This document shows positions 1 to 57,441 of a stretch of DNA of 64,000 nucleotides, one piece after another. This DNA comes from a virus. The notes below the pieces were generated by a model that had not been told where the DNA came from, searched no databases, and saw only the letters and a list, made by a program, of their open reading frames with translations. A program made the position numbers and the translations under genes. The stretch covers positions 1 to 64,000 of the IMG/VR virus record IMGVR_UViG_3300047393_000086; one strand, given 5' to 3'. Numbering within the stretch: position 1 is the first letter of the stretch; every line of letters starts with the position of its first letter.

Positions 1-58
1 TCGAGCCCACTCCTCTAGATTTTCAGTCTAGCGCAATCACCTGATCTGCCAAAGCTCC
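1..58 (-). tRNA. tRNA-Phe(GAA), 3' end truncated by window edge
   Basis: Minus strand GGAGCTTTGGCAGATCAGGTGATTGCG-CTAGA-CTGAAAA-TCTAG-AGGAGTGGGCTCGA; D arm and anticodon arm intact. Confidence 0.85.
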
Positions 59-122
59 TTGCCTTTTTTAGAGTTTTTAATAGAACATTAGAACTCAAGG
101 ACAGTACGACCTAAAAACTAAC

Positions 123-208
123 TGGTGGGATGTGATGGAGTCAAACCACCCGAGTCATAAGACAAACGATTTACAGTCGTTCCCGCTATCCCTACGGTAT
201 AACATCCC
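123..208 (-). tRNA. tRNA-Tyr(GTA)
   Basis: Cloverleaf with loop CTGTAAA, long variable arm and encoded CCA. T loop is the variant TTTGACT. Confidence 0.9.
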
Positions 209-709
209 TTATTTTGTAAAATAATAATTCTTCCAAGAATCTCCTAAATAATCCTCTATAGATATAAGATCTTTAGATTTAATTACATTTGAATGAGCTA
301 GCCTGTGACAATTTGGACAAATATACGTTAAATTAGTATTTTCATTACTTCCTCCATCCTTGCGTGGAATAATATGATGTACATCTCCTACAACACCATC
401 ATGAAACCATCCACATGAAAAACATGGTAATTTCATTCTTCTTAATATTTTCATAGTGGTTCTATTACTCATATCAAGTATTGATGTTGCTTCTACCTTT
501 CTAACATATGCAGCATGTTTTGCTATAGATCTAATAGATTTCCTTTCATCTTTACCGGTATTATCAGAACTTAAAGTTCTACTAACCTTTTCATTAATTT
601 CTGTTCTTTTGGCCTTTGTGCTAAAACCCCTTGAACATTTAGTTGAACAAAATCTACCAGAACCGTAAGTTCCTTCATGTTCATTTCCGCAATTTTCGCA
701 TTTTTTCAT
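209..709 (-). CDS. HNH homing endonuclease with N-terminal Cys/Zn motif
   Basis: CFSC...DVHHIIPRKDGGSNENTNLTYICPNCHRLAH HNH motif. Stop codon abuts the tRNA-Tyr 5' end; late-type promoter at 732-739. Confidence 0.85.
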   Translation of the reverse strand: MKKCENCGNEHEGTYGSGRFCSTKCSRGFSTKAKRTEINEKVSRTLSSDNTGKDERKSIRSIAKHAAYVRKVEATSILDMSNRTTMKILRRMKLPCFSCGWFHDGVVGDVHHIIPRKDGGSNENTNLTYICPNCHRLAHSNVIKSKDLISIEDYLGDSWKNYYFTK

Positions 710-848
710 AATATTAAGTATGTTTATATACTATATATCTATTCGAATGTGTAAAAAATGTTACAGTAGTTCAAAAATATCCAATTTTGATGGGCTCATC
801 TGATAATATGTTTCAATTACCCAGCACTTGAGATTGGCAACTCCTTGT

Positions 849-922
849 ACATCTTGAAGGATTCGAACCTACGACCTCCTCGGTGTAAACGAGGCGCTCT
901 GAACCAACTGAGCTAAAGGTGC
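849..922 (-). tRNA. tRNA-Val(TAC)
   Basis: TAGCTCAGTTGG D arm, CCTCG-TTTACAC-CGAGG anticodon arm, GGTTCGAATCC T arm. Confidence 0.9.
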
Positions 923-1026
923 ATGGAGCTTCATAATGTTCACAACTAATAACCATATTGGATTATTCATTTACGTCTGCAACAGCTTTTAACTGAGAGA
1001 TTGCAGAATTGTGTATGAAGCATTTG

Positions 1027-1099
1027 TGACCCCGGCGGGCTACGATCCCACTACCCCCAAGTTAAAAGCTTGGTGCTCTACCGATTGAGCTACGAAGTC
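1027..1099 (-). tRNA. tRNA-Lys(TTT)
   Basis: CCAAG-CTTTTAA-CTTGG anticodon arm. T loop is the variant ATCGTAG. Confidence 0.88.
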
Positions 1100-1288
1100 T
1101 GGTGTAGGCAATTACGTTTTTAAAGAACTAGAGCCAACATTAAAACTTTTAAAGAGTATAAAAGAAACATCTTACCTAAGACCGCGAATCCATGCAAGAC
1201 TTAACTACACCAAACATTTTATTTGCAACTTAAATGTCTGTCACGTTACTACACTTCCGGTTTCTTTTATTGCGTCTAGTATTTTACT

Positions 1289-1360
1289 ACGACAATATAG
1301 GATTCGAACCTATGATTCCGGCCCCTATGGCCAGCGTGTTCTCCGCTACACTAATCGCCG
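1289..1360 (-). ncRNA. Atypical tRNA-like RNA (loop CATAGGG, lacks U33)
   Basis: Acceptor CGGCGAT/ATTGTCG, D stem GTGT/ACAC, stem CTGGC/GCCGG, T arm ATAGG-TTCGAAT-CCTAT. Confidence 0.65.
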
Positions 1361-1390
1361 CAACTATTATTACCTTCAACTTTTCTCTTT

Positions 1391-1518
1391 GTGACTGTAA
1401 GGGGATTCGAACCGTGATGATTACTAACTCGCGACACTTTCATCATCTTTCATTAACCTAGTCGTTAGACGTCTGATTTACCGGCAGACCTAGTTTTACC
1501 TTTACTAGTATACAATCA
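1391..1518 (-). ncRNA. tRNA-like RNA with very large variable-region insert
   Basis: 8-bp acceptor TGATTGTA/TACAGTCA, D stem CTAGT/ACTAG, GTCTG/CAGAC arm, insert of about 55 nt, then GGTTCGAATCC. Confidence 0.55.
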
Positions 1519-1523
1519 TTTAG

Positions 1524-1595
1524 TAGCGGGGGCAGGATTCGAACCTGCGACCTTCGGGTTATGAGCCCGCTGAGCTACCTCTGCTCTACCCCGCA
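1524..1595 (-). tRNA. tRNA-fMet(CAT), initiator type
   Basis: GCGGG-CTCATAA-CCCG with three consecutive G-C pairs in the anticodon stem and an unpaired 1:72 position. Confidence 0.9.
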
Positions 1596-1601
1596 ATATA
1601 T

Positions 1602-1695
1602 GCTGATTAGGATGGATTCGAACCATAATCCTGTTTCCTCTTTCAGGTACTCCGACCTTACTCCATTCTACTGTGCGCCTTTACACCATAATCAA
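1602..1695 (-). ncRNA. tRNA-like RNA with unrecognisable anticodon arm
   Basis: Acceptor TGATTA/TAATCA, D arm GTG..CAC, T arm ATGG-TTCGAAT-CCAT; middle region expanded. Confidence 0.55.
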
Positions 1696-1744
1696 TCGTC
1701 AGTTTCGAACCTGACAGCCTTAAGGTAATTACTCTTAAGATTTG

Positions 1745-1824
1745 TTGCGATTAAAGGACTCGAACCTCTGTTGGGTATATCTACCAATACGGCTCATGAG
1801 ACCGTCAATGCACCTGCATCGCAA
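1745..1824 (-). ncRNA. Atypical tRNA(CAT) with truncated D arm and long variable arm
   Basis: Acceptor TTGCGAT/ATCGCAA, ACGGT-CTCATGA-GCCGT, variable TTGG..CCAA, T arm AGAGG-TTCGAGT-CCTTT. Confidence 0.6.
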
Positions 1825-1894
1825 TAAATACCTGTCTTTCCAGATTGTCAGCGTTCTATTAAAAATGGAAGAAGTTTTGCGCCTATACCTTTTG

Positions 1895-1992
1895 TAATTA
1901 TGATTGGATTCGAACCAATTTCAGCTTTACCATAAAGAGTATATTTCAACTCAACCTTGGGGAGGTGCCGCCAACCAATGGCCTCATAATCA
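1895..1992 (-). ncRNA. tRNA-like RNA with three small hairpins replacing the anticodon and variable arms
   Basis: Acceptor GATTATGA/TCATAATT, D GCC/GGC, hairpins ACCT/AGGT, GAGT/ACTC and CTTTA/TAAAG, T arm ATTGG-TTCGAAT-CCAAT. Confidence 0.55.
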
Positions 1993-1994
1993 TT

Positions 1995-2072
1995 TGGAGC
2001 AGAGATAGGATTCGAACCTATAACCTAATCCGGCCTATTACCGGTTGCACGTCCAATTGTGCTTCAACGCTC
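1995..2072 (-). ncRNA. Atypical tRNA-like RNA (loop TAATAGG)
   Basis: D stem GCAC/GTGC, CCGG/CCGG arm, T arm ATAGG-TTCGAAT-CCTAT. Acceptor only partly paired; ends CCA. Confidence 0.55.
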
Positions 2073-2077
2073 ATATT

Positions 2078-2192
2078 TGCGAAGTGAATGGATTCGAACC
2101 ATTTGTCTGTACTTGTACGACTTTAACCAGACCACTCCTAGAGCTGCAGCTCTGTTATAATGTATGCATCAACCTCTAAATGCTTTCCCTTT
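2078..2192 (-). ncRNA. Degenerate or expanded tRNA-like element
   Basis: T arm AATGG-TTCGAAT-CCATT, D-like GCAT/ATGC, internal AGAGCTGCAGCTCT hairpin. Acceptor weak. Confidence 0.4.
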
Positions 2193-2194
2193 GA

Positions 2195-2345
2195 CTATTA
2201 CGGATGTGGACTCGAACCACATTATTTCAGTTACCTATGCGTTTTACTTTAAGCTGCCTTATTACTAAGGTTTCGAAGCGCATCTTTGATTAGGGAGCGA
2301 CCCTATCTCTAACGTCTTAAAGTAATTTGTTAGTCTTTTCCTTAC
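2195..2345 (-). ncRNA. Structured RNA ending in a tRNA T arm
   Basis: ATGTGG-TTCGAGT-CCACAT at the 3' end, upstream hairpins TAGGG/CCCTA and CCTTA/TAAGG. 5' boundary uncertain. Confidence 0.4.
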
Positions 2346-2422
2346 CTCTTAATAATTATAATTGCCAGTCAGATGTTACCCTCTGATGCTTACCAGAACT
2401 CGCTGGAATAATTATTAAATTG

Positions 2423-2494
2423 AGCAGATAGGGAGAATCGAACTCCCATCTTCAGATTGGAAGTCTGAAGTAATGACCATTATACGATATCTGC
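2423..2494 (-). tRNA. tRNA-Gly(TCC)
   Basis: TCAGA-CTTCCAA-TCTGA anticodon arm; full cloverleaf. Confidence 0.92.
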
Positions 2495-2538
2495 ATTATT
2501 TACCAAGATTTCAAATAACGTTTGTTTTAATTTGTTAT

Positions 2539-2606
2539 GTAAATATAAACAATTTTTTTCAATCCTGAAAACTTTTTATGTTAATTTTTTGTTAAAGTTA
2601 TTAACA
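2539..2606 (-). promoter_or_regulatory. Early-type promoter (TATATTTAC) with upstream TTAAC direct repeats
   Basis: Copy of a recurring intergenic motif also at 4568, 6523, 12045, 13285, 14189, 19113, 19331, 35696 and 57393. Confidence 0.65.
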
Positions 2607-2610
2607 ATTG

Positions 2611-2684
2611 TGGTCCATCTAGGATTCGAACCTAGGACCCTCTCGTTATGAGCGAGGCGCTCTACCAGACTGAGCTAAAAGACC
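2611..2684 (-). tRNA. tRNA(CAT), Ile2 or elongator Met
   Basis: CCTCG-CTCATAA-CGAGA anticodon arm; body resembles the Ile(GAT) tRNA at 2827. Confidence 0.88.
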
Positions 2685-2746
2685 GTTTAGAGTTTTCACG
2701 TTATTAAAGCCAACGTCCGGAATAATCTCTCAACCAAACCACTTTG

Positions 2747-2818
2747 TTACTCCTAATGGAATCGAACCACTGCCGCATGGATCAAAACCATGTGTACTAA
2801 CCGTTATACGAAGGAGTA
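2747..2818 (-). tRNA. tRNA-Gln(TTG)
   Basis: CATGG-TTTTGAT-CCATG; T1-A72 first pair. Confidence 0.9.
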
Positions 2819-2826
2819 TTAATATG

Positions 2827-2900
2827 TAGGCAATAATGGACTCGAACCATTGACCTCCTCGGTATCAGCGAGGCGCTCTAACCAACTGAGCTAAATGCCT
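2827..2900 (-). tRNA. tRNA-Ile(GAT)
   Basis: CCTCG-CTGATAC-CGAGG. Confidence 0.92.
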
Positions 2901-2904
2901 GAAT

Positions 2905-3062
2905 TTGGAAGGTCACCAACAGCACCTTCCTTGGTAGTTTTAGGAATAATTGACATTCCAAGGTTTCGAATTGTTTAACGTCTTGTTCTAAAAGACTCAA
3001 CGACTGTTGCATCGTCGCCGCACGAGACTACTTCTACCTTAACGCGAACTGGTTTTAAGCTT
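2905..3062 (-). ncRNA. Putative structured ncRNA of unknown family
   Basis: GC-richer non-coding stretch with hairpins GTCTT/AAGAC, CCTTGG/CCAAGG and GGAAGG/CCTTCC. Confidence 0.4.
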
Positions 3063-3065
3063 ATT

Positions 3066-3701
3066 TTATATGATTTTACGACCTAATCTCCATCCTTCAG
3101 GTATCATATCACCTTTATTGATTTTCTTAGATTCAATTTCGTTTGTTATCCAACACTTTCCATATTGAGAGTTATTAGATCCTTTTTGTTTAAGGGAATT
3201 AGATTCTCCTATTTTTCTTTTAGTTTCTTCTGAATGAGATTTACCAGTGAAATTATCATATTTTACATTTCCACTCTTATGGTTTTTAATAGATCCATTT
3301 CTTAATATTTCTTTCATTCTAATAGAATAGTCAATATTGCTCCATTTGTTATTTAACCATACTCTAGCGCCTTCTCGTAGGTTTAGACTGTGTGTATCGT
3401 CTGATATTCCTCCACCACCTCCTAATTGAAGATTCATACATAACTCTTCGTTAATCAATTCAACATTAACGATTTGTTTTTCTCTTTCTTTTAATGTTTT
3501 TCTATCAGGTAAGAATTCTAATATTTCGCAATCATGATTGTCTTTACCATGTTTATTGATTGAATACCATAATCTTTTGCCTGAACCAATATAACCATCT
3601 TCTAGATTATCTGTTGAATGCATTCCAATATAAAACTTGTTTGTAATAATACATGTAGTTTTATAAATGTAGTGATATTTTCTTCTTTGAGCTCTTTCCA
3701 T
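3066..3701 (-). CDS. GIY-YIG (Seg-like) homing endonuclease with NUMOD3
   Basis: YIYKTT..KFYIGMH..Y.GSG N-terminus and GKSHSEETKRKI NUMOD3 motif; late-type promoter at 3728-3735. Confidence 0.88.
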   Translation of the reverse strand: MERAQRRKYHYIYKTTCIITNKFYIGMHSTDNLEDGYIGSGKRLWYSINKHGKDNHDCEILEFLPDRKTLKEREKQIVNVELINEELCMNLQLGGGGGISDDTHSLNLREGARVWLNNKWSNIDYSIRMKEILRNGSIKNHKSGNVKYDNFTGKSHSEETKRKIGESNSLKQKGSNNSQYGKCWITNEIESKKINKGDMIPEGWRLGRKII

Positions 3702-3761
3702 GGATATTTAGATATTTTTCTATAATCTATATATCTATGGAAATGGCAAAAAGTTTCACAG

Positions 3762-3833
3762 TACTGCCACGGAGAATCGAACTCCGATTTTTAGGATGAA
3801 AACCTAATGTCCTAACCGTTAGACGATGGCAGC
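3762..3833 (-). tRNA. tRNA-Glu(TTC)
   Basis: TTAGG-TTTTCAT-CCTAA. Confidence 0.9.
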
Positions 3834-3839
3834 ATTTTG

Positions 3840-3911
3840 CGGACTTGGGGAATTTCGAAATCCCGACCCTTCACTTAACAGGCGAACGCTCTTCCTCTGA
3901 GCTACAAGTCC
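3840..3911 (-). tRNA. tRNA-Asn(GTT)
   Basis: TTCGC-CTGTTAA-GTGAA. Confidence 0.88.
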
Positions 3912-4016
3912 AATTTACTCTAGCACCACCTAGAGCCTTTGTCCGGCTTGTCCAAATAACTCACAACCGATTGTTGCGTTAAGGACCGAAGCTTGTAACC
4001 GGCGATCAATGCATTG

Positions 4017-4092
4017 TCTGGTAGGCAGGATTCGAACCTGCGTGCTCTAGCGTCCAAGGCCAGCGAGATAAACCGGGCTCCTCTACTACCAG
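4017..4092 (-). tRNA. tRNA-Pro(TGG)
   Basis: CTGGC-CTTGGAC-GCTAG. Confidence 0.9.
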
Positions 4093-4098
4093 TTAATT

Positions 4099-4175
4099 TG
4101 GCGGCTCGTATGGGACTCGAACCCATGACCTTCGCCGTGACAGGGCGACATTGTAACCAACTCTACTAACGAGCC
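4099..4175 (-). tRNA. tRNA-Asp(GTC)
   Basis: TCGCC-CTGTCAC-GGCGA; encoded CCA. Confidence 0.92.
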
Positions 4176-4184
4176 AAATTTTTG

Positions 4185-4257
4185 AGCCTCCTGTCGGGCT
4201 CGAACCAACGACCTGATCATTACAAATGATCTGCTCTACCAACTGAGCTAAGGAGGC
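4185..4257 (-). tRNA. tRNA-Thr(TGT)
   Basis: GATCA-TTTGTAA-TGATC. Confidence 0.92.
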
Positions 4258-4345
4258 AAATTTGATAGGTGACCATCCTATCATGAAACTTCCATGGATG
4301 TTTCTTTTCTTTATAGAATCCGTAGATACTGTAGGAACATTTTTG

Positions 4346-4425
4346 TACCCAAGGAGGGAGTCGAACCCTCAAGCTTTCGCCACGGCTTCTAAGACCGCTG
4401 TGTCTACCAGTTCCACCACTCGGGC
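4346..4425 (-). tRNA. tRNA-Leu(TAG)
   Basis: GCGGT-CTTAGAA-GCCGT with variable arm. Confidence 0.9.
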
Positions 4426-4432
4426 AATTTTG

Positions 4433-4517
4433 CGGAGGATGTAGGATTCGAACCTACGGTACCTTGCGGTACAACGGTTTTCAAGACCGCCGCGATCGAC
4501 CACTCTGCCAATCCTCC
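4433..4517 (-). tRNA. tRNA-Ser(TGA)
   Basis: GCGGT-CTTGAAA-ACCGT, long variable arm GTACC-GCAA-GGTAC. Confidence 0.92.
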
Positions 4518-4637
4518 TTAATTTCTATGCCAAGATGTCAATGAACATTTGTTCTAAATTTTGATATGTAAATATAATCAAAACTTTTTAAACCCGAAAA
4601 CTTTAAATGTTAAATTTATGTTAAAGTTTTCTTTTTG

Positions 4638-4708
4638 AGTCCGGTGTTGGAATCGAACCAACTTATCAGAGTTTGCAATCCTGTGCCTAACCAATCGACC
4701 AACCGAAC
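4638..4708 (-). tRNA. tRNA-Cys(GCA)
   Basis: CAGGA-TTGCAAA-CTCTG; U discriminator. Confidence 0.88.
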
Positions 4709-4718
4709 CTGTAAAATC

Positions 4719-4752
4719 AAAAAAGGACCATTCATTTCTGAAAGGTCCTTTT
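4719..4752 (-). terminator. Intrinsic terminator (putative attenuator) immediately 5' of tRNA-Cys
   Basis: Minus strand AAAAGGACC-T-TTCA-GAAA-TGAA-T-GGTCCTTTTTT. Confidence 0.8.
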
Positions 4753-4775
4753 GAATATTTTGTATGTTAATAGAT

Positions 4776-4913
4776 TTAACTCATATTAACATTTTTGTTT
4801 CCAAAAGAACCGTCTTGCTTCCAATCCGAATTACTAAAATACTGCTCACATATCGGGTTGCCTGTCGTAAGGACTGGTTGTTCCATAATGATATGTTTTT
4901 GAATTGCTTGCAT
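4776..4913 (-). CDS. Putative 45-aa leader peptide MQAIQKHIIMEQPVLTTGNPICEQYFSNSDWKQDGSFGNKNVNMS
   Basis: Read manually (below the ORF-track cutoff). A-rich start context, promoters at 4969-4997, followed by alternative hairpins. Confidence 0.65.
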   Translation of the reverse strand: MQAIQKHIIMEQPVLTTGNPICEQYFSNSDWKQDGSFGNKNVNMS

Positions 4914-4968
4914 TTTAATTGTTTTTGTTTGTTCTAATCTATATATAAGATTTAATTTTCTTATGTAT

Positions 4969-4997
4969 ATTATAGATCTATATATCTTTTTGTTTCA
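4969..4997 (-). promoter_or_regulatory. Middle-type promoter TGAAAC-N17-TATAAT with nested late-type GATATATA
   Basis: The same 17-nt-spaced motif recurs upstream of thioredoxin, gp44, gp55, gp41 and gp45. Confidence 0.65.
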
Positions 4998-5034
4998 TTA
5001 AATTTCACTTTAATTTGAACTATTTTTAATTATT

Positions 5035-5328
5035 TTAAAAAAGTTCATTTCCGAGTGAATTTGACCACTTTACCAGAATATCTCCGTGACATTTATTTGG
5101 CTTACACCAACATCCAAGAGTCTTTCCCTGTAATTCTATCAAAGAATTAAATAAAGTTTCATTTTCTAGAAGATATTTTTCATATTTTTCTAGGGCTTCT
5201 GCTCTATTCTTGACCCTAAATTCTGCAAGGGTCCCTTCTTTATGTGAATATGGATTTCCCCATTTTGAGGGTCTTCCGATATAAACATCGTAAGGTTCTT
5301 TTTTAAGATGAACTATCTTTGTTTGCAT
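5035..5328 (-). CDS. DUF4326-like protein
   Basis: DVYIGRPSKWGNPY...L.GKTLGCWCKP..CHGDIL motif. Confidence 0.8.
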   Translation of the reverse strand: MQTKIVHLKKEPYDVYIGRPSKWGNPYSHKEGTLAEFRVKNRAEALEKYEKYLLENETLFNSLIELQGKTLGCWCKPNKCHGDILVKWSNSLGNELF

Positions 5329-5342
5329 CTTTATTTAATTTG

Positions 5343-5460
5343 TTGTCAGGACAGGATTCGAACCTGTATCTACGTCTAGTCTTGTTTAGCCGACCATACC
5401 CAACAAGAGCGTCTACCATGAAAGGATCTTTAATATTCCTAACTATTCCGCCACCTGACT
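5343..5460 (-). ncRNA. Leu-like tRNA scaffold with inserted D loop and enlarged anticodon loop
   Basis: GTCAGG/CCTGAC acceptor, TGGCGGAAT..[insert]..GGTAGACGC, TCTTGTT/AACAAGA arm with 15-nt loop, ACAGG-TTCGAAT-CCTGT. Confidence 0.6.
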
Positions 5461-5625
5461 ATTTTCGCTGATATTAAAACTTGTTCAATCACTTTAAAAA
5501 AATATCAACTTGCTACTTACTATATTTAGGCTCGCCAATCCTGTATCATATTATAATTTACCTGAACCTTCGTTGGGTTGTTGATTGACCACTCCCAATT
5601 ACTCAAGAAGTTTTTAAAATTTTAA

Positions 5626-5793
5626 TTACTTTACAGTGTCAACTTTTACAGTATCGACTACTGTTGAATCTACTGCTACTGAATCAACTTGAACTGCTGT
5701 TGAATCTGTTGATGTTTCTGATGTTGCAGTTGTTTTGTTACAACCTACTGCTAATGTAGCTACCAAAGCTAATGCGAAAATTACTTTTTTCAT
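5626..5793 (-). CDS. Small lipoprotein, 55 aa, with D-S/T repeats
   Basis: Manual translation MKKVIFALALVATLAVGCNKTTATSETSTDSTAVQVDSVAVDSTVVDTVKVDTVK; lipobox AVGC. Confidence 0.8.
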   Translation of the reverse strand: MKKVIFALALVATLAVGCNKTTATSETSTDSTAVQVDSVAVDSTVVDTVKVDTVK

Positions 5794-5835
5794 TTTAAAA
5801 TTTATTTAGTTAATCATGAAACTTATGTTTCATAG

Positions 5836-5906
5836 TAGCCCCGCCAAGAATCGAACTTGGAAATCCGCTTTAGAAGAGCGGCGGTATATCCGTTTACCTA
5901 CGGGGC
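5836..5906 (-). tRNA. tRNA-Arg(TCT)
   Basis: CCGCT-CTTCTAA-AGCGG. Confidence 0.9.
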
Positions 5907-5926
5907 TGTTATTCTTATTACTTTAA

Positions 5927-6280
5927 TTATACTAAAGAATCGACTTTTGTTTCAAGTTCTTTAATATGTTTACAATTGCCTCGTCTAAAAGTTGAAGCTG
6001 GACAATTACAGCTCCAAATGCCTCGTTGTCTTTTAACAACATATTCAGATTTTCCATTTGATGAAGGAACCTTAAACTCCATGTCTTTTTGAGGCTCTGG
6101 CTTCACTTCTGTTGAATCACTTACTGGTTCAATTATTATATCATCACTGAACTCTACATCATCTCTGGTAGTACCATCTTCAACAGGAATCCAACCCGGG
6201 CATATAAAGGTACCGTTTAAGGTTTTAACAATTCCAAAAGTTTGAAATACTCCGTGTCGAGGTATCTTATATTTTGCCAT
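5927..6280 (-). CDS. SWIM zinc-finger protein
   Basis: WSCNCPA....GNCKHI motif. Confidence 0.7.
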   Translation of the reverse strand: MAKYKIPRHGVFQTFGIVKTLNGTFICPGWIPVEDGTTRDDVEFSDDIIIEPVSDSTEVKPEPQKDMEFKVPSSNGKSEYVVKRQRGIWSCNCPASTFRRGNCKHIKELETKVDSLV

Positions 6281-6504
6281 TATCTTTCTAGGATTACAAA
6301 TTCACCAAATGCATTATCAAAAACTTGTAAGAGATGTTCGTAATCTCCATTCATCATTTCATTAATTAGGGCAGCACCTCGATCTTTCCATCCTAATTGG
6401 GTTGCAAATCGTTTAGCGTATGCCATAAGAACAAATGCATTACCATCAGGTCCTGTTAGATCTATAATAATTGCTCCAGTTTTTTCTTGTTTATTTCTAA
6501 TCAT
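6280..6504 (-). CDS. Hypothetical phage protein
   Basis: IDLTGPDGNAF motif; directly downstream of the early promoter at 6523. Confidence 0.7.
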   Translation of the reverse strand: MIRNKQEKTGAIIIDLTGPDGNAFVLMAYAKRFATQLGWKDRGAALINEMMNGDYEHLLQVFDNAFGEFVILER

Positions 6505-6583
6505 CTTGTTTAAATTTGATATGTAAATATAAACAAAAAAATCCAGACTAAAAAATCTGGATTGTTAAATTTATGTTAAAGTT

Positions 6584-7126
6584 TTATAAATTCATAGTGT
6601 GCTTTGTTCCGTCTGCCATACTATAAACAATATGTAGCGGTTTCAGCGAATGCTCTTGTGAATTTAAAATCTTTAAATATTTACTCCCCTTTCCAGGTTT
6701 TAAGTATGCAACTGTCATGTGTGGATGATAATCCGGATAGTCTGACGAATATGGTAGTTCGCATAGAGATTTATTTGCAGCATGTAAATTATCTCCCTTA
6801 ATGTCAAATTTAAGTACATCAAATTTTTCATTTTCAAATAGGGAAATATTGTGGGCTAAACATTCTCCAAAATCAAAGCCATCCAGCTTTTCCCTTACCT
6901 GCTCTAACGATACATCTGGTTTTAAACCATATAATAGGGTACAGTGAGGTTCTGTTTCTAATCCATGACCTCCATTATTATCATCATGATAAATGTCTTC
7001 TGCACTAATTTCTTTATGAATTGCTTTCATCTGCGGAAAGTCAAAATATAACATTGCACAATTAGAATCGTAAGTTGGTTTTTCAGCTTCGTTCATGAAT
7101 TCTTCAAATAATTTTATTCTTTTCAT
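6584..7126 (-). CDS. 2H phosphoesterase, T4 gp57B/Acb1-like
   Basis: Two HxT motifs (HCTLLYG, HMTVAY) and DYPDYHPH; carries the N-terminal tag MKRIKLFEEFMNE. Confidence 0.75.
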   Translation of the reverse strand: MKRIKLFEEFMNEAEKPTYDSNCAMLYFDFPQMKAIHKEISAEDIYHDDNNGGHGLETEPHCTLLYGLKPDVSLEQVREKLDGFDFGECLAHNISLFENEKFDVLKFDIKGDNLHAANKSLCELPYSSDYPDYHPHMTVAYLKPGKGSKYLKILNSQEHSLKPLHIVYSMADGTKHTMNL

Positions 7127-7144
7127 ATCTATTTCTTTTATTAA

Positions 7145-7444
7145 TTATGCTCCAAAATCTAAGTCAAGTGTATCATCCTTTTCATCATCATAATCTCCAG
7201 TTAAATCAACATCTTTTAAATCTATACCTTCAACTTTAATCTTTGGTCTAAAATGACCATCTCCGTCAAAATATGCTTTAAAGCTTCTACCAGAACCTAC
7301 AGCACCACACCATTCCATGAATGCAAACATTTTTAAAAAATCGTCTGCAGTTTCTTGGTCAATATTAGAAATAGTTACATTTAATGTAACTGTTCCGTCT
7401 TCCGCTTCATTTAAGAAGTCTTCGAATACTTTTATATGTTTCAT
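7145..7444 (-). CDS. Hypothetical protein with N-terminal tag
   Basis: MKHIKVFEDFLNEAE; acidic. Confidence 0.7.
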   Translation of the reverse strand: MKHIKVFEDFLNEAEDGTVTLNVTISNIDQETADDFLKMFAFMEWCGAVGSGRSFKAYFDGDGHFRPKIKVEGIDLKDVDLTGDYDDEKDDTLDLDFGA

Positions 7445-8208
7445 TATTTCTTGTTTTCTTTTTTATCGTAATATTCCCAAACCTCATCTAATTGTTTAGG
7501 ATCTGCTAACCAGCTTTCCCACCAGCCTCCACCTTCTTCTTCAACTAAAGAACCATCTTTTAATTTACGATATTCTTTTTCTTTAACTGCAATTTTAAAA
7601 GTTTTTGGTGTAAATGGAAATGATTTAATATAATGCATACAACCAATTTGTTCTTCGCTGCCCTCAGTTATACTAACATGACCTGTAAAACCATAATCTT
7701 TTCCTTCAGGAATCCATACGATTGAATCTAAGTAATATGGTTGACCTTCTTTACCTTCTTTGAAAACCGAACTAAGTCTCATATTTTGAAAAGTTCCAGT
7801 GCCTTCTTCAGCGTCTTCGTATATTGAACAATCTGACCATTCTTCGTCTGTTCCCATGATTCCTTCTCCAAGTGGCTCCTGCGCTAATAATTTCTGTAAC
7901 ACTTGAACAATAACTGCACTCGTAAATGGAGCTGAGCCACCGCTTTGACCAGAATCAGCAAATTTCTTTACTAATGCCATTACTTCAGGCACAAACTCTT
8001 TAATAATTGGAGTCCCACCTTCATCTTTACCTTCAGCATTTTTCATCATAAGATCCAATTCAAATTGAGCCTTATCGACTAATCCTTCATTGATAGAATC
8101 AACAGAGATCATCTTAACACCTTCGTGTAAGAATTTAATTAGCTGAAATTTAACTTTGTTTTCGATTGATTCTGTTAAGAATTCTTCGAATAATTTAATT
8201 CTTTCCAT
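7444..8208 (-). CDS. Hypothetical protein with N-terminal tag
   Basis: MERIKLFEEFLTES; translationally coupled to its neighbours. Confidence 0.7.
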   Translation of the reverse strand: MERIKLFEEFLTESIENKVKFQLIKFLHEGVKMISVDSINEGLVDKAQFELDLMMKNAEGKDEGGTPIIKEFVPEVMALVKKFADSGQSGGSAPFTSAVIVQVLQKLLAQEPLGEGIMGTDEEWSDCSIYEDAEEGTGTFQNMRLSSVFKEGKEGQPYYLDSIVWIPEGKDYGFTGHVSITEGSEEQIGCMHYIKSFPFTPKTFKIAVKEKEYRKLKDGSLVEEEGGGWWESWLADPKQLDEVWEYYDKKENKK

Positions 8209-8554
8209 TTGTTGGGTATTTTACCATTGTATTTCTTGTTAAACTCTTGTCTGTGTTTTTTACAAAACCTAGACCTTTATAAAATTTCTCTAATCGTGAA
8301 ACTGATGTTGCCCCAAAATCTTTTGATGGAGTTAAATATATTGGTTTGTTTTGTGCATTTGCAAATGCAATTACCAAATCCATAACTTCAGTGCCAATTC
8401 CCTCTCCCCTTTTTTCTTTAGGTATTTCAATTCTTGTAAGTTCGACATAATTTGGGGTATTAAATACATCCAACTTAATTCCGAACTTACCCTCTAAATC
8501 TTTAAGGACCATTTCCTCATTTAAGAACTCTTCGAAAAGTTTAACCTTTTTCAT
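8195..8554 (-). CDS. GNAT acetyltransferase with N-terminal tag
   Basis: RGEGIG acetyl-CoA motif and FYKGLGF; MKKVKLFEEFLNEE. Confidence 0.8.
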   Translation of the reverse strand: MKKVKLFEEFLNEEMVLKDLEGKFGIKLDVFNTPNYVELTRIEIPKEKRGEGIGTEVMDLVIAFANAQNKPIYLTPSKDFGATSVSRLEKFYKGLGFVKNTDKSLTRNTMVKYPTNGKN

Positions 8555-9338
8555 CGATTTCTTTTATTTTTTTAATCGCCCAATCGACTCCTTCATCTCC
8601 ACCCCAAATTAACCAAGCAACATATCCATTATCTTTCCATGGTGTTGATTTATATTCTGGATTTATTTCTGAATTTTTTCTATGTCGATTAAATTGTGCC
8701 ATTCTACTAATAACATCTCGGGAAAGCTTTTCTCCTTTTGCCAATTGATTCGCTCTCTGCCATCCAACTGGAGTACCTGCAGTTACCTCATCGCGACCAT
8801 ATTCATCTCTCCAATCAAGTGCTTTCTTTGCGTTTGCTTTTGCAGCAGCTGGATAGTCATTATAAGTTTCTTCAGCCTCATTTAGGGACTCTTCAACTTT
8901 ATAAGGTAACTTTTCGTCATGTCCGCCATCTCTGACCTCTTTAGCCAAATCAGCATCTGCTTTTTGCCAAGTACCATCACCTTTTTCAAGGAATGCATTT
9001 ACACGGGCATAACCCCACTGTTCTTGTGTTGCTCCTGGATGGTGGCTAGAATTCCAAGCTCCCATTCCTCTGCGCATTACAGCTCTAATAATTCCGATCG
9101 GAACTCCAGATTCTTTTGCCTTTTTATCCAATGCTTTATTGATTGCAGCATTATCTAGTTCCTCTCTAGATGTTTCTTTTTCTTCTGCTTCTTGAACATG
9201 TTCTGGAGAATTATCGTGTCCACATTCGTGACAAATATAAACATCATCTCCACCCTCTTCGAGCCTCCATTTCCAGCCGCATTCATCGCACTTTATCTGG
9301 TTCGCCGAAAATTCTTCGAATGTTTTTAGTTTTTTCAT
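8541..9338 (-). CDS. Multi-domain protein (Zn ribbon plus two small domains) with N-terminal tag
   Basis: MKKLKTFEEF, CDEC..CHEC, domains separated by VQEAEE and SLNEAEE; late promoter at 9343-9350. Confidence 0.7.
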   Translation of the reverse strand: MKKLKTFEEFSANQIKCDECGWKWRLEEGGDDVYICHECGHDNSPEHVQEAEEKETSREELDNAAINKALDKKAKESGVPIGIIRAVMRRGMGAWNSSHHPGATQEQWGYARVNAFLEKGDGTWQKADADLAKEVRDGGHDEKLPYKVEESLNEAEETYNDYPAAAKANAKKALDWRDEYGRDEVTAGTPVGWQRANQLAKGEKLSRDVISRMAQFNRHRKNSEINPEYKSTPWKDNGYVAWLIWGGDEGVDWAIKKIKEIDEKG

Positions 9339-9860: not shown

Positions 9861-10104
9861 TAATCATTTTAATGGTGTAAGACCATTCCGTATCGTCTTC
9901 AATAATCGTTATGAATAATGTGATTGTTGATGGAGGAACATATGAATCTTTAGCCCACTTAAATAATTTTTGAATATTTCCTTTCTGTCTTAATTTTTTA
10001 GAAAATGTTCTAATATCGCAATCATGCCATACAAAGGGATGGTAGCTCAAAATACTCGAGCTACCATGTCCTATATAACCTATATTAAATATGATTAGTT
10101 TCAT
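9790..10104 (-). CDS. Hypothetical protein
   Basis: ORF coupled to the RNA ligase stop. Confidence 0.55.
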   Translation of the reverse strand: MKLIIFNIGYIGHGSSSILSYHPFVWHDCDIRTFSKKLRQKGNIQKLFKWAKDSYVPPSTITLFITIIEDDTEWSYTIKMINVREYRAHWEKVYKKEWKDVSRL

Positions 10105-11228
10105 TAGTGAGAATCTCCAACGTTATTCTTTTCACCATAAATCAAATAGTCTGGATTAATTACTTTCGCAACTTTTTGTCTTTCACCAGTAACATGTTTG
10201 ATTACAATTCCTTCATGCGGCACTTTAGTTCCTTCAATGAAATTATTAAATACAAAACCGTCTTGTACCTCTTGATTCCATAAACCATCATAAAGTACTT
10301 CAACGTGTGGAAGTTCTAATACATCTTCAATGATATATTGCGCCAAATCAGTATCTGCGTATCTACCATCGATTGTGATATCGAATCCAGCGAATTTGAT
10401 ATCGGTTAAACCATATTCGTAATTCTTTTGAATTCCTGCACCATAGATTTCTCCATATAGAACAAATCCTCCACCGATCTCTTCAGTATCTCTAGTTTTT
10501 ACAGCTTCCCATAATTTTTGTTTGATACCATAATCTTCGGCAATAGTTCTCCAAACATCAGTTGAATAGAATCCCTGAGAATCACTCCCTTTCTCCACGT
10601 TATGAGAACCATACACATATTCGTAACCAATCCATTCGTCAGCAAGTCCAAAGAATTTCTTTAATTTATCAAAGAACGATAATTTATTCTTACGAACAAT
10701 ACCGAAACGTGCATTTGTACCGTGTAATTTACGGGTAATTTGAACCCCATCCTCTTCTGTGAATAATCCAGCAACATTCTTTAAGTTCGGAAACTTATAG
10801 TAAACTGTAAAATTCGGGTTAGATTGGTAACGAATCTTTTTACCATTCGCTAATTGCACTTGTTTTACAGGTGGTTCGAACTTAGTAATACCAAGTTCAT
10901 CCATTAGGTCTCTACCCTCTCTAATACTTGATGCTTTGATATGAATGATTGGAATAATCAAACATTCTGAATAAACTCCACGTAATTTTACAGTACGTAC
11001 TCTTTGACCTTTACGTAAGTATGAAGTTACTCCCATTTTATCTGACAATTCCTGTGGAATTACAGCATCTGTAGTTGCAATTGCTACTAAAGCACCTTGG
11101 TTAAATTCACCTTTTTTAGTGACCGCATTCCACCCACCAACAATTGCTAATTCGATGTTATCAGCACCTTCAATTGGTCTGATTTCTGTGATTTGCCCTA
11201 CATAGCAAACTGAATTTTGATTTTCCAT
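10104..11228 (-). CDS. RNA ligase (DRB0094/Rnl5-like, N-terminal OB domain)
   Basis: IEGADNIE OB domain, motif I KLHGTN, GEIYG, FDI, EGIVIK, KVINPDYL. Confidence 0.88.
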   Translation of the reverse strand: MENQNSVCYVGQITEIRPIEGADNIELAIVGGWNAVTKKGEFNQGALVAIATTDAVIPQELSDKMGVTSYLRKGQRVRTVKLRGVYSECLIIPIIHIKASSIREGRDLMDELGITKFEPPVKQVQLANGKKIRYQSNPNFTVYYKFPNLKNVAGLFTEEDGVQITRKLHGTNARFGIVRKNKLSFFDKLKKFFGLADEWIGYEYVYGSHNVEKGSDSQGFYSTDVWRTIAEDYGIKQKLWEAVKTRDTEEIGGGFVLYGEIYGAGIQKNYEYGLTDIKFAGFDITIDGRYADTDLAQYIIEDVLELPHVEVLYDGLWNQEVQDGFVFNNFIEGTKVPHEGIVIKHVTGERQKVAKVINPDYLIYGEKNNVGDSH

Positions 11229-11930: not shown

Positions 11931-12020
11931 TTATATTGTTTTTAATAACATTTCCATTGTTAATACTCCTGATGCATACATTTGATTTAATTCTTCGTCT
12001 GTGTAAGTTCCGTTTGCCAT
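11931..12020 (-). CDS. Small 29-aa early protein
   Basis: Manual translation MANGTYTDEELNQMYASGVLTMEMLLKTI; fills the gap after the promoter. Confidence 0.5.
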   Translation of the reverse strand: MANGTYTDEELNQMYASGVLTMEMLLKTI

Positions 12021-12115
12021 AATGGTTTTGTTTAAATTTGATATGTAAATATAAACAAAAAAATCCAGATTAAAAAATCTGGATTGTTAAATTTATGTTA
12101 AAGTTATTAACAATT

Positions 12116-12655
12116 TTACTTGAATATCTTTCCCACTTCTTCTTTACCAAATTTTGCCTCTAATGCTTCTATTGCCAGTTTTTTATCACTAGAACTTAAT
12201 GCCTTAAAGTTTGCCTCAATCATACTATTATTTTCAGTCGCACTTTTATATTTTCTACCATCATCAATATATTGAGCGTAGAAATCATATGAAAATGCAT
12301 ACTTTAAGAATTTCTCAAGTTCTGACATGTATTTCCCTTCTAATGTCTTTGTTAAATCAGCAACCTTAGTTTTCTTTTTGTTTAAATAGAATTCCCATGA
12401 ATCTGTTGTCATTCTCCATTTAGCAGTCATGAACATGTGAATAACATCACCTTCCGAAAGGGTCACTTGAAATTTAATACCATCACTTGTTGATTGGTCT
12501 TGAATATCTTTAATCCATTTTTCGTCATTAGTCGGTAGGACTCTAGAAACTACGAATTTAGCGTCTTGTAATAGTTCTTCAGGAGAACCCCACTTGCCTT
12601 TTTCTAATTCTGAATAGGTAGTGTATTTTTCAAAGGTCATTATTGCTTTTTTCAT
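12116..12655 (-). CDS. Hypothetical protein with divergent N-terminal tag
   Basis: MKKAIMTFEKY. Confidence 0.65.
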   Translation of the reverse strand: MKKAIMTFEKYTTYSELEKGKWGSPEELLQDAKFVVSRVLPTNDEKWIKDIQDQSTSDGIKFQVTLSEGDVIHMFMTAKWRMTTDSWEFYLNKKKTKVADLTKTLEGKYMSELEKFLKYAFSYDFYAQYIDDGRKYKSATENNSMIEANFKALSSSDKKLAIEALEAKFGKEEVGKIFK

Positions 12656-13261: not shown

Positions 13262-13342
13262 TTTTGTTTGTTTTAATTTGATATGTAAATATAAATAAAA
13301 AACTCCAGACTAAAAAATCTGGAGTGTTAAATTTATGTTAAA

Positions 13343-13558
13343 TTATTCAACACTTTCGTGTTTCTTAATTTTATGATGTTTTTTATATTCGTTAATAAAG
13401 CTTTCGCCAACTCCAATTTCATCAATGATATACTCATCAGGAATTAGGGGCTTTCGGGCTCGACCATTGATAATTCTATCAGGATTTTGTTCATTTAAAA
13501 ATACTGTCATGTATTTTGTTTTTGAACGTTCTGATTTTCTATAAACTACAACTACCAT
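13343..13558 (-). CDS. Hypothetical protein
   Basis: Coupled to the sigma gene. Confidence 0.6.
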   Translation of the reverse strand: MVVVVYRKSERSKTKYMTVFLNEQNPDRIINGRARKPLIPDEYIIDEIGVGESFINEYKKHHKIKKHESVE

Positions 13559-19087: not shown

Positions 19088-19174
19088 GATTTATTTGTTT
19101 TAATTTGTATATGTAAATATAAGCAAAATATTTCAAACCGGAAACATTTTTATGTTAATTTTTTGTTAAAGTTA

Positions 19175-19312
19175 TTAACAATCCTCTCCCTTACCTTTAT
19201 GCTTGGTTTTCTTGTAATATTTCTTTTTATTTCGGTGAGGAGTTGGTACTTTTAGGGCATCGAACCATTCTTCTAGAGTAAAATTGATCTTTGTAAGTTT
19301 TTTCTTTTCCAT
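19175..19312 (-). CDS. Small basic 45-aa early protein
   Basis: Manual translation MEKKKLTKINFTLEEWFDALKVPTPHRNKKKYYKKTKHKGKGEDC; follows the early promoter at 19331. Confidence 0.6.
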   Translation of the reverse strand: MEKKKLTKINFTLEEWFDALKVPTPHRNKKKYYKKTKHKGKGEDC

Positions 19313-19429
19313 TTTGTTTTAATTTGATATGTAAATATAATATATTTTTTTGACGCGGTAAAATGTTTTTTTGACTTTTTTCACTAGGTCGTTAAATAAA
19401 TATATTAACCTAAAAATATCTATAGAATC

Positions 19430-57345: not shown

Positions 57346-57441
57346 AATTTTATTTATTTTTATTATAGTTATATATCTTTTTAATTTGATATGTAAATAT
57401 AATCAATTAAAACGATCTGGTAAAATTTTTTAGATAAATTT

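Follow-up and report, generated by a model that had tools for sequence, protein, structure and literature searches.

The stretch of viral DNA analysed here, referred to as the window, comprises positions 1 to 64,000 of the IMG/VR record IMGVR_UViG_3300047393_000086 and is part of a 77-kb contig with 33% G+C. Close to its start it carries an array of transfer RNA (tRNA) genes, headed by a short leader module, i.e. a small open reading frame (ORF) followed by an intrinsic terminator, which may serve as an attenuator. Nearly all genes of the phage, as well as all elements of the module, are found on the minus strand. The module begins with a promoter-like site, ATGAAA-18-TATAAT (4969–4998), which agrees with the sigma-70 consensus in 10 of 12 positions, the probable Bacteroidota host having other promoter rules. 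Just 3' of the −10-like hexamer there is an inverted repeat, ATAAGA/TCTTAT (4945–4964), followed within an A-rich leader devoid of a Shine-Dalgarno sequence by a TTAGAACAAA motif (4928–4937) that is common to the leader and the repeated intergenic cassettes of the phage. The leader ORF (4776–4913) consists of 45 codons and a TAA stop codon, and its start context is typical for the genes of this phage. It contains a small conserved hairpin, CCAGTC ... GACAGG (4861–4877; RNAalifold, alignment pairs 74–80 with 86–92), and, in codons 35–38, the strand GGTTCTTTTGGA (4800–4811), assigned as the anti-terminator 5' strand from its pairing, a shuffle test and its conservation. An inner hairpin (4764–4792; arms 4792–4784 and 4772–4764) with 9 bp in the window and a conserved core of 7 bp encloses the TAA stop codon (4778–4776) in its loop. 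The intrinsic terminator (4713–4755) has its 5' arm at 4752–4744, its 3' arm at 4729–4721 and a T-tract reaching 4713.

The first gene past the terminator, 11 nucleotides (nt) beyond the T-tract, is tRNA-Cys(GCA) (4637–4708, minus strand), as called by ARAGORN. The remainder of the array (1–4517, minus strand) holds 16 further ARAGORN tRNAs, a GIY-YIG endonuclease gene and tRNA-like elements, and ends at the contig end within tRNA-Phe(GAA), so that any tRNAs for Ala, His and Trp would lie beyond view. Upstream of the leader, tRNA-Arg(TCT) (5907–5835, minus strand) is the sole ARAGORN match and thus, as stated in a preliminary description made from the letters of this stretch, the only canonical tRNA on that side. 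Rfam adds a weak tRNA-like match at 5460–5343 (29.6 bits), which spans 118 nt and therefore carries inserts, and another one within the array at 1745–1823 (23.4 bits); both are on the minus strand and neither was called by ARAGORN. The consensus promoter scan revealed no promoter-like site from the leader start to tRNA-Cys. An Rfam cmscan of positions 1–9000 with E-values up to 1 returned only tRNA matches and chance plastid motifs on tRNA genes, with none of them within 4709–4997, and covariance models identified neither a T-box riboswitch nor any other Rfam cis-regulator. Every sequence feature listed in the preliminary description was found where it had been placed.

The terminator hairpin is built from an outer stem, AAAAGGACC/GGTCCTTTT, an inner TTCA/TGAA stem and a GAAA loop (−16 kcal/mol), followed by TTTTTTGATTTT, and it is the sole copy in the window. 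Its 5' arm lies within TTCAAAAGGACC (4755–4744), a strand that is also used by the anti-terminator. This strand can pair with the segment of codons 35–38 over 12 bp, including two G·U pairs, at −14.5 kcal/mol, and the resulting helix surrounds the inner hairpin. When the upstream 158 nt were shuffled 3000 times with dinucleotides preserved, this energy was never reached (mean −5.5, standard deviation 1.5), and the two among 973 genomic windows that tie at −14.5 are taken as overlapping windows with the true site. Both the 12-bp pairing and the inner stem with the stop codon in its loop, as first described, are thereby confirmed, the pairing far beyond what shuffled sequences give. Constrained folding, the check suggested at that time, yielded two mutually exclusive folds of similar energy, −31.8 kcal/mol for the terminator versus −27.5 kcal/mol for the anti-terminator in the window, and −28.0 versus −28.8 kcal/mol in the relative L090. 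The RNA preceding the terminator 3' arm folded to the anti-terminator plus inner hairpin in all three sequences tried, and the RNAalifold consensus of 12 relatives is the anti-terminator helix. Since the nascent RNA adopts the anti-terminator before the 3' arm exists, an untranslated leader is predicted to read through.

When 5.8 billion proteins were searched with the leader peptide, only 12 clusters were returned, with 72–100% identity. Peptide-pattern scans detected 16 IMG/VR and 14 metagenome loci, giving 19 distinct DNA versions that form clades 1 and 2. Clade 3 (L136, L137, L143, L214 and L218), with leaders of 42 codons, and clade 4 (L154, L170, L191 and L194), with a leader of 48 codons that does not resemble those of clades 1 and 2 in its N-terminal half, were found only via a terminator-pattern scan of viral contigs; in both, the ORF of 42–48 amino acids ends at the same place as the window leader. 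In total, the four clades comprise 28 distinct DNA versions of the conserved module; their members are related large phages from metagenomes of freshwater, wastewater and marine origin, with related contigs of up to 236 kb. In clade 2, no tRNA is found upstream in stretches of about 1–10 kb, and 23–27 tRNAs follow downstream on the same strand where the sequence suffices; the module is therefore positioned exactly at the array head. Clades 1 and 3 have the lone tRNA-Arg(TCT) upstream, L236 also having an upstream tRNA-Lys. The Flavobacterium phage immuto has an annotated tRNA-Cys without a comparable leader.

Hardly any variation among these phages is seen in the approximately 100 nt that begin with the anti-terminator strand and end with the T-tract, and the start of tRNA-Cys is always found 44 nt past the terminator start in all four clades. 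The adjoining tRNA-Cys itself varies widely, with two diverged types and compensatory stem changes. The 9-bp outer stem of the terminator is invariant in all four clades, and all 12 anti-terminator pairs are kept (100% of cells) in 18 distinct sequences from all clades. Three anti-terminator positions vary, on one side only and always with a standard pair retained. The anti-terminator strand of clade 3 is GGTCTTTTTGAA, not GGTTCTTTTGAA, which corresponds to a TC-to-CT swap that turns Ser into Leu and exchanges a U·G and a C-G pair opposite the GG of the terminator arm, both pairs being retained. This suggests that base pairing outranks coding at the anti-terminator strand. The stop codon is located within the inner-hairpin loop in all clades, as TAG in L214. 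The hairpin at 4861–4877 is nearly invariant in clades 1 and 2, where one A-to-G change retains a U·G pair, and it is possibly a pause site for RNA polymerase or a synchronising element. At the 5' end of the module, the TATAAT region is invariant in clades 1 and 2 and present in clades 3 and 4. The inverted repeat next to it reads ACAAGA/TCTTGT in clade 3 (e.g. L136 and L214), i.e. with a compensatory change from T-A to C-G, and TATAAG/CTTATA in clade 4 (e.g. L154); it could form a 5' hairpin of the leader RNA or represent a palindromic operator.

The sense frame is open in all 19 versions of clades 1 and 2, each of the other five frames being interrupted in some or all of them, and the leader indels (+3, +9 and −6) are all in frame. 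The numbers of variable sites at codon positions 1, 2 and 3 are 10, 16 and 15, and the pairwise ratios of non-synonymous to synonymous substitution rates (dN/dS) range from 0.4 to 1.4. From these data it follows that the frame is retained with much of the peptide free to change, and the peptide sequence appears to be under weak constraint. The expectation that the ORF would be kept upstream of tRNA arrays in related phages was thus borne out, with the frame open in all relatives and the amino-acid sequence drifting. No Pfam family was found for the leader peptide, and AlphaFold2 with 13 sequences gave a mean confidence (pLDDT, predicted local distance difference test) of 56 and no secondary structure, which is weak evidence.

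These observations bear on a simple alternative, namely that the leader is a small phage gene of the usual kind, with a promoter of its own and a standard terminator, that tRNA-Cys receives leak-through only and that the cassette at 4577–4565 drives the rest of the array; the complement of the terminator arm and the diversity of amino acids would then be side effects. A conserved frame with several invariant residues would suit such a gene, as would the fact that Cys is the rarest residue of the phage proteome (0.8%), which makes tRNA-Cys the least-used tRNA. However, dN/dS is near 1 with no excess of third-position changes, neither a fold nor a family is predicted, and the complement, far beyond chance, is kept although the encoded residue changes. 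The composition of the leader, described below, speaks against it as well, and this explanation is regarded as distinctly unlikely.

A recount confirmed that the window leader uses 19 amino acids and 33 distinct codons, including 27 consecutive non-repeating codons. The 33 distinct codons are matched by 0.2% of 45-codon windows in phage genes, by 0.8% of stop-free six-frame windows and by 7.8% of composition-matched stop-free shuffles. The codon diversity is therefore above the background of random phage windows against which it was proposed to be compared, most weakly so against the shuffles. The non-repeating run of 27 codons occurs in <0.1% of every control, and the 19 amino acids within 29 residues in ~1% of shuffles and 0.4% of small ORFs. 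In the leaders of clades 2 and 4, the N-terminal halves of which are unlike each other, all 20 amino acids are present in 24–28 residues, all before the anti-terminator strand. None of 1012 other ORFs of 40–60 amino acids (six frames of the genome and of the relatives' loci) contains all 20 amino acids in ≤28 residues; the frequency of 20 amino acids in 28 residues is 7.5e-4 among composition-matched stop-free shuffles and 2e-5 per window for independent draws with the amino-acid frequencies of the phage proteome, these diversity statistics having been picked after the data were seen and the clade members not being independent.

The amino acids of the leader were compared with the tRNAs behind the terminator. 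The arrays of clades 2 and 4, with leaders for all 20 amino acids, cover 19–20 amino acids (that of clade 4 runs to the contig end). The clade 3 leaders are devoid of Ala and Asp, and tRNA-Ala and tRNA-Asp are missing from all three longer clade 3 arrays. In G003, the record of L137, these two tRNAs occur in a separate cluster ~26 kb away, and tRNA-Ser(TGA) is found 10 kb upstream. This second cluster (Ala, Leu-TAA, Ile and Asp; L231, ~15.1–16.0 kb) has an HNH-like ORF between tRNAs and tRNA-like remnants upstream, and no leader-plus-terminator unit was seen before it. The leader of L111 is without Ala and Arg, and its complete 20-tRNA array is without Ala only. In L233, whose array is the fullest of clade 3, no Ala, Asp, Arg or Ser precedes the anti-terminator strand in the leader, and the array has no tRNA for Ala, Asp or Ser; by our own calculation, the probability of such an overlap is 17/4845 if amino acids are taken as equally likely. 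Ala, Asp and Ser all belong to the more frequent residues of the phage proteome.

The case of arginine is similar. The window leader (clade 1a), in which Ala is represented by a GCA codon, lacks Arg only, and the link between this absence and the upstream tRNA-Arg(TCT), pointed out at the outset for the window, was found to hold across clades. In clades 1 and 3, with tRNA-Arg(TCT) upstream, the part of the leader preceding the anti-terminator strand is free of Arg codons, whereas AGA occurs there in clades 2 and 4, which have tRNA-Arg(TCT) downstream. L089 and L090 have a different residue in place of the Arg that usually occupies codon 6, and carry AGA at codon 27. Taken over four clades and with some mismatches, the amino-acid set of the leader thus follows the tRNA set behind the terminator. 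An ordinary small gene would leave unexplained why the leader is without exactly those amino acids whose tRNAs are not behind it, as well as the presence of 20 amino acids in 24–28 residues in two clades with unlike N-terminal halves.

Some of the tRNA calls in these arrays are unusual. ARAGORN reports a four-letter anticodon, '(ttga)', ~1.9–2.1 kb past the leader in L114 and L118–L123, in clade 2 arrays that are otherwise without tRNA-Ser. L111 and L143 are also among the loci with odd anticodon loops, the calls including '(aa)', '(gg)' and Tyr(ata). These could represent a tRNA with an eight-membered loop or a miscalled tRNA-Ser.

The module may be considered, with moderate confidence, as a multivalent ribosome-mediated (leader-peptide) attenuator at the head of the phage tRNA array. 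An intrinsic terminator, an exclusive anti-terminator and codons matching the regulated product, as known from attenuators, are all present, and the comparative evidence (open frame, kept pairing and match between leader and array) supports the general multi-amino-acid attenuation that had been suggested for the window. Transcription from the site near 4970 would produce a leader RNA, translated into a 45-residue peptide without a function of its own. In the emerging RNA, codons 35–38 (4811–4800) would pair with 4755–4744 around the small hairpin and sequester the terminator 5' arm, the default being read-through to tRNA-Cys and beyond. A ribosome in step with the polymerase would, while moving through codons 35–45 to the stop codon, open both the helix and the inner hairpin, whereupon the terminator (4752–4713) could form and transcription would end 11 nt before tRNA-Cys. 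A ribosome delayed at any earlier codon would leave the anti-terminator intact. The leader before the anti-terminator strand would thus offer one or a few codons for nearly every amino acid with a tRNA behind the terminator, and therefore a shortage of any such charged tRNA would raise transcription of the array. What the analysis shows directly are the sequence parts, both folds with the energy of each, how well they are conserved, the retained frame and the correspondence of leader and array; from these we infer translation of the ORF, termination, an effect of stalling and a biological trigger.

Several observations weigh against such an attenuator. With regard to structure, no two-sided covariation was found in either helix among the 18 sequences, since the shared strand, i.e. 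the terminator 5' arm, never varies. Of the earlier expectation of a conserved codon-diverse upstream ORF with covarying hairpins, the ORF was found in four clades and the two-sided covariation was not; the structural support consists of conservation, one-sided pair-keeping changes and shuffle statistics rather than covariation. Moreover, there is no clear anti-anti-terminator (1:2) element and no strand competing for the anti-terminator 5' strand. A ribosome waiting to terminate translation would occupy ~4793–4766, 7 nt short of the anti-terminator strand, and would presumably block the helix by steric hindrance. As to the codons, each amino acid is represented by one or a few of them and not by the classical codon runs, and single codons should give a shallow response. 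The match between leader and array is incomplete: the leader of L232 has codons for His, Ile and Ser but no ARAGORN tRNA for them behind it; in L235, the array of which reaches the contig end, Glu, Lys, Thr and Trp are unmatched; and the leaders of clades 1 and 3 do not sense the tRNA-Arg(ACG) located behind the terminator. The matches for Ala, Asp and Arg correspond to perhaps three or four evolutionary events, not to one per sequence. Finally, some residues of the N-terminal half are invariant within clades 1 and 2 and could point to a function of the peptide.

In another explanation, the module is a translation-coupled switch that does not read tRNAs codon by codon and either reports ribosome loading, for example at a given infection time or after host shut-off, or controls tRNA-Cys via the single invariant Cys codon. 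The two-state fold with its read-through default is as compatible with this switch as with attenuation, and the single invariant TGT codon, together with the invariant link to tRNA-Cys, would be accounted for. One Cys codon in 45 is, however, expected by chance in ~1/3 of such ORFs (an estimate from the 0.8% Cys content), and a switch of this kind would account neither for the near-complete set of amino acids nor for the way in which it co-varies with the array. It is considered unlikely.

A further point against control of the whole array by attenuation comes from the repeated cassettes. These comprise ~90 nt and consist of a AACTTTAACA-type box, a hairpin with a T-run, the TTATATTTACATA core and TTAAAACAAA, followed by a start codon or a tRNA. 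Eight exact copies of the core are present in the window, all on the minus strand (2503–2618, 4535–4630, 6506–6586, 12020–12119, 13267–13356, 19094–19182, 19310–19363 and 57379–57413). Those at 2503–2618, 4535–4630, 6506–6586, 12020–12119, 13267–13356 and 19094–19182 combine a repeated stem-loop with the promoter motif in the manner of promoter-early stem-loop (PeSL) cassettes. The leader unit itself is without the TTATATTTACATA core and is not of this type. The cassette before tRNA-Ser (4535–4630), a degenerate hairpin followed by the core, is likely an internal promoter. Internal promoters feeding the array had been proposed at 4568 and 2539, rightly so, as exact copies of TTATATTTACATA are located directly past tRNA-Cys (4577–4565) and at 2548–2536. 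The possibility that the 3' arm of the inner hairpin is also a copy of the cassette promoter core was rejected as unsupported, as there are three mismatches in 13 positions and the second base of the −10-like hexamer, a key one, is a C.

The cassette past tRNA-Cys is found in clades 1, 2 and 4 and in part of clade 3. Much of the array may therefore have its own promoter, and for most of the tRNAs the switch may supplement transcription without governing it. The presence of this promoter-like cassette in most members is likewise a point in favour of both an ordinary small gene and a switch that does not read tRNAs. The hairpin of the cassette at 4535–4630 has −0.5 kcal/mol, and the values at this place past tRNA-Cys range from −0.5 to −2.9 kcal/mol, as compared with −11 to −17 kcal/mol at several protein-gene cassettes; cassette hairpins inside the arrays are degenerate. 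In two clade 3 phages, no cassette core is found between tRNA-Cys and the next tRNAs. With these degenerate hairpins, and with the core missing in the two phages, read-through transcripts from the leader can continue into the array.

The cassettes also bear on the question of whether the nearly invariant 100 nt are kept for a role at the DNA level or in trans, i.e. as a recombination joint, a target of a homing endonuclease or a small regulatory RNA released by termination. Mosaic joints between relatives adjoin the cassettes, and a comparison with L085 and L090 shows that the leader of L086 and L104 is of clade 2 and their tRNA-Cys of the clade 1 type, so that recombination must have taken place within or next to the invariant terminator block. 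Cassettes with a hairpin and a promoter motif recur in the genome, as is the case for PeSLs (PMC2839356, PMC4122927). In addition, the array harbours a homing-endonuclease gene that such a role could involve. Nevertheless, this does not explain why the frame is kept open, why the stop codon lies in the hairpin loop or why leader and array match, and a role of this kind is judged very unlikely as the reason for conservation, with the proviso that it and attenuation could both be true together. The endonuclease-like gene itself, of the GIY-YIG/NUMOD3 type, is located within the tRNA array at 3066–3701 (minus strand), much like SegB in the tRNA region of phage T4 (cited in PMC8421152).

The attenuator reading may be extended further. 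The leader could be an 'all-amino-acid' test message with one codon per tRNA species of the array, by which the loss of any host tRNA would be detected. Starvation or cleavage of tRNAs by a host anticodon nuclease would then cause the phage to transcribe its near-complete tRNA set. This extension is put forward tentatively, as a doubtful proposition.

The gene content of the window is that of a large tailed phage, including tail sheath, portal, terminase, prohead protease, RNA ligase, ribonucleotide reductase and DNA polymerase. The Shine-Dalgarno core is present in only 3 of 75 phage genes, and the start regions are A-rich. Both traits are typical of Bacteroidota hosts, and the host probably belongs to this phylum. 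The stretch was detected in freshwater, wastewater and marine metagenomes. At least half of the words sampled from it were present in six RNA runs, which carries no information on expression. No near relatives were found in the GenBank phage collection, in which matches were limited to tRNA and DUF4326. Not more than 6 kb from the tRNA array, an RNA ligase gene (PHROG 968; 10104–11228) and a 2H-phosphoesterase/Acb1-like gene (6584–7126) are found on the minus strand; these fit a phage equipped against RNA or tRNA damage or against cyclic-nucleotide defence. A DUF4326 gene (5035–5328, minus strand) lies within the tRNA array of the window phage, and DUF4326 genes are also found inside the tRNA arrays of several unrelated giant phages (L006, L007, L016 and L020; contigs of 170–430 kb). 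This gene was rejected as part of the leader module because more distant phages (L006, L007 and others) carry different ORFs at that place; it is also missing upstream of the leader in most clade 2 relatives.

Leader-peptide attenuators control amino-acid operons (trp, his, leu and phe, and the multivalent thr and ilvGMEDA) as well as pheST. The phage module resembles those of amino-acid operons in having a short leader ORF, an intrinsic terminator before the regulated genes and an upstream strand that pairs with the terminator 5' arm, and its leader codons likewise correspond to the supply provided by the downstream genes. It differs from them in preceding tRNAs instead of enzymes, in sampling up to 20 amino acids once or a few times without runs, and in being without a clear 1:2 element, so that the untranslated RNA is predicted to read through. 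It is also phage-borne, in a probable Bacteroidota host without use of Shine-Dalgarno sequences. T-box riboswitches sense tRNA charging through the choice between terminator and anti-terminator as well, binding one tRNA directly and needing no translation. The response proposed here would likewise be to tRNA charging through such a choice but, unlike that of T-boxes, would need translation.

A further analogy is provided by the ribosome-stalling attenuators of antibiotic-resistance genes such as vmlR (PMC9226507); the prediction of terminator/anti-terminator pairs has also been described (PMC5314783). The ribosome-stalling attenuators likewise combine an upstream ORF with a terminator/anti-terminator pair that answers slowed translation generally and not the lack of one amino acid. 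In contrast to the phage leader, the content of which follows the tRNA set, they respond to drug-stalled ribosomes at particular peptide contexts and have protein targets. Among published systems, the one closest in function is the trn operon of Anabaena PCC 7120, a long and large extra tRNA array that is silent until translation is impaired and the expression of which rises under translational stress (PMC8421152). The words attenuator, leader and terminator are absent from that paper, and control of the array is attributed, in the title of a later one, to the transcriptional repressor TrcR (PMC10272220). Unlike the phage array, the trn operon is bacterial and, going by that title, repressor-controlled. 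With the PeSL cassettes of T4-type phages (PMC2839356, PMC4122927), the likeness concerns the flanks only: the phage cassettes (hairpin, T-run, TTATATTTACATA and short A-rich leader) flank small modules, including one past tRNA-Cys, and mosaic joints are near. The leader unit differs from PeSLs in its upstream region, its coding frame and its two-state fold.

Searches of the literature available to us revealed no published attenuator or leader peptide before phage tRNA genes; leader-peptide control is described for amino-acid operons, and no account of it was found for tRNA genes. The tRNA arrays of phages are usually related to codon usage, and a more recent view sees them as substitutes for host tRNAs that defence nucleases destroy. 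To our knowledge, little has been described on the control of their expression. The element described here is small, sharply bounded and conserved, which makes direct testing feasible. If the attenuator reading is true, tRNA arrays of this phage group would be under demand-driven control, attenuation of the trp/his type would be extended from amino-acid to tRNA supply, and the leader would be a compact device of natural origin that senses the capacity to decode all 20 amino acids. Should the leader in addition be a test message for lost host tRNAs, the phages would possess a counter-defence sensor derived from a classical attenuator, which would be part of a wider, undescribed class of codon-matched leaders before phage tRNA arrays.

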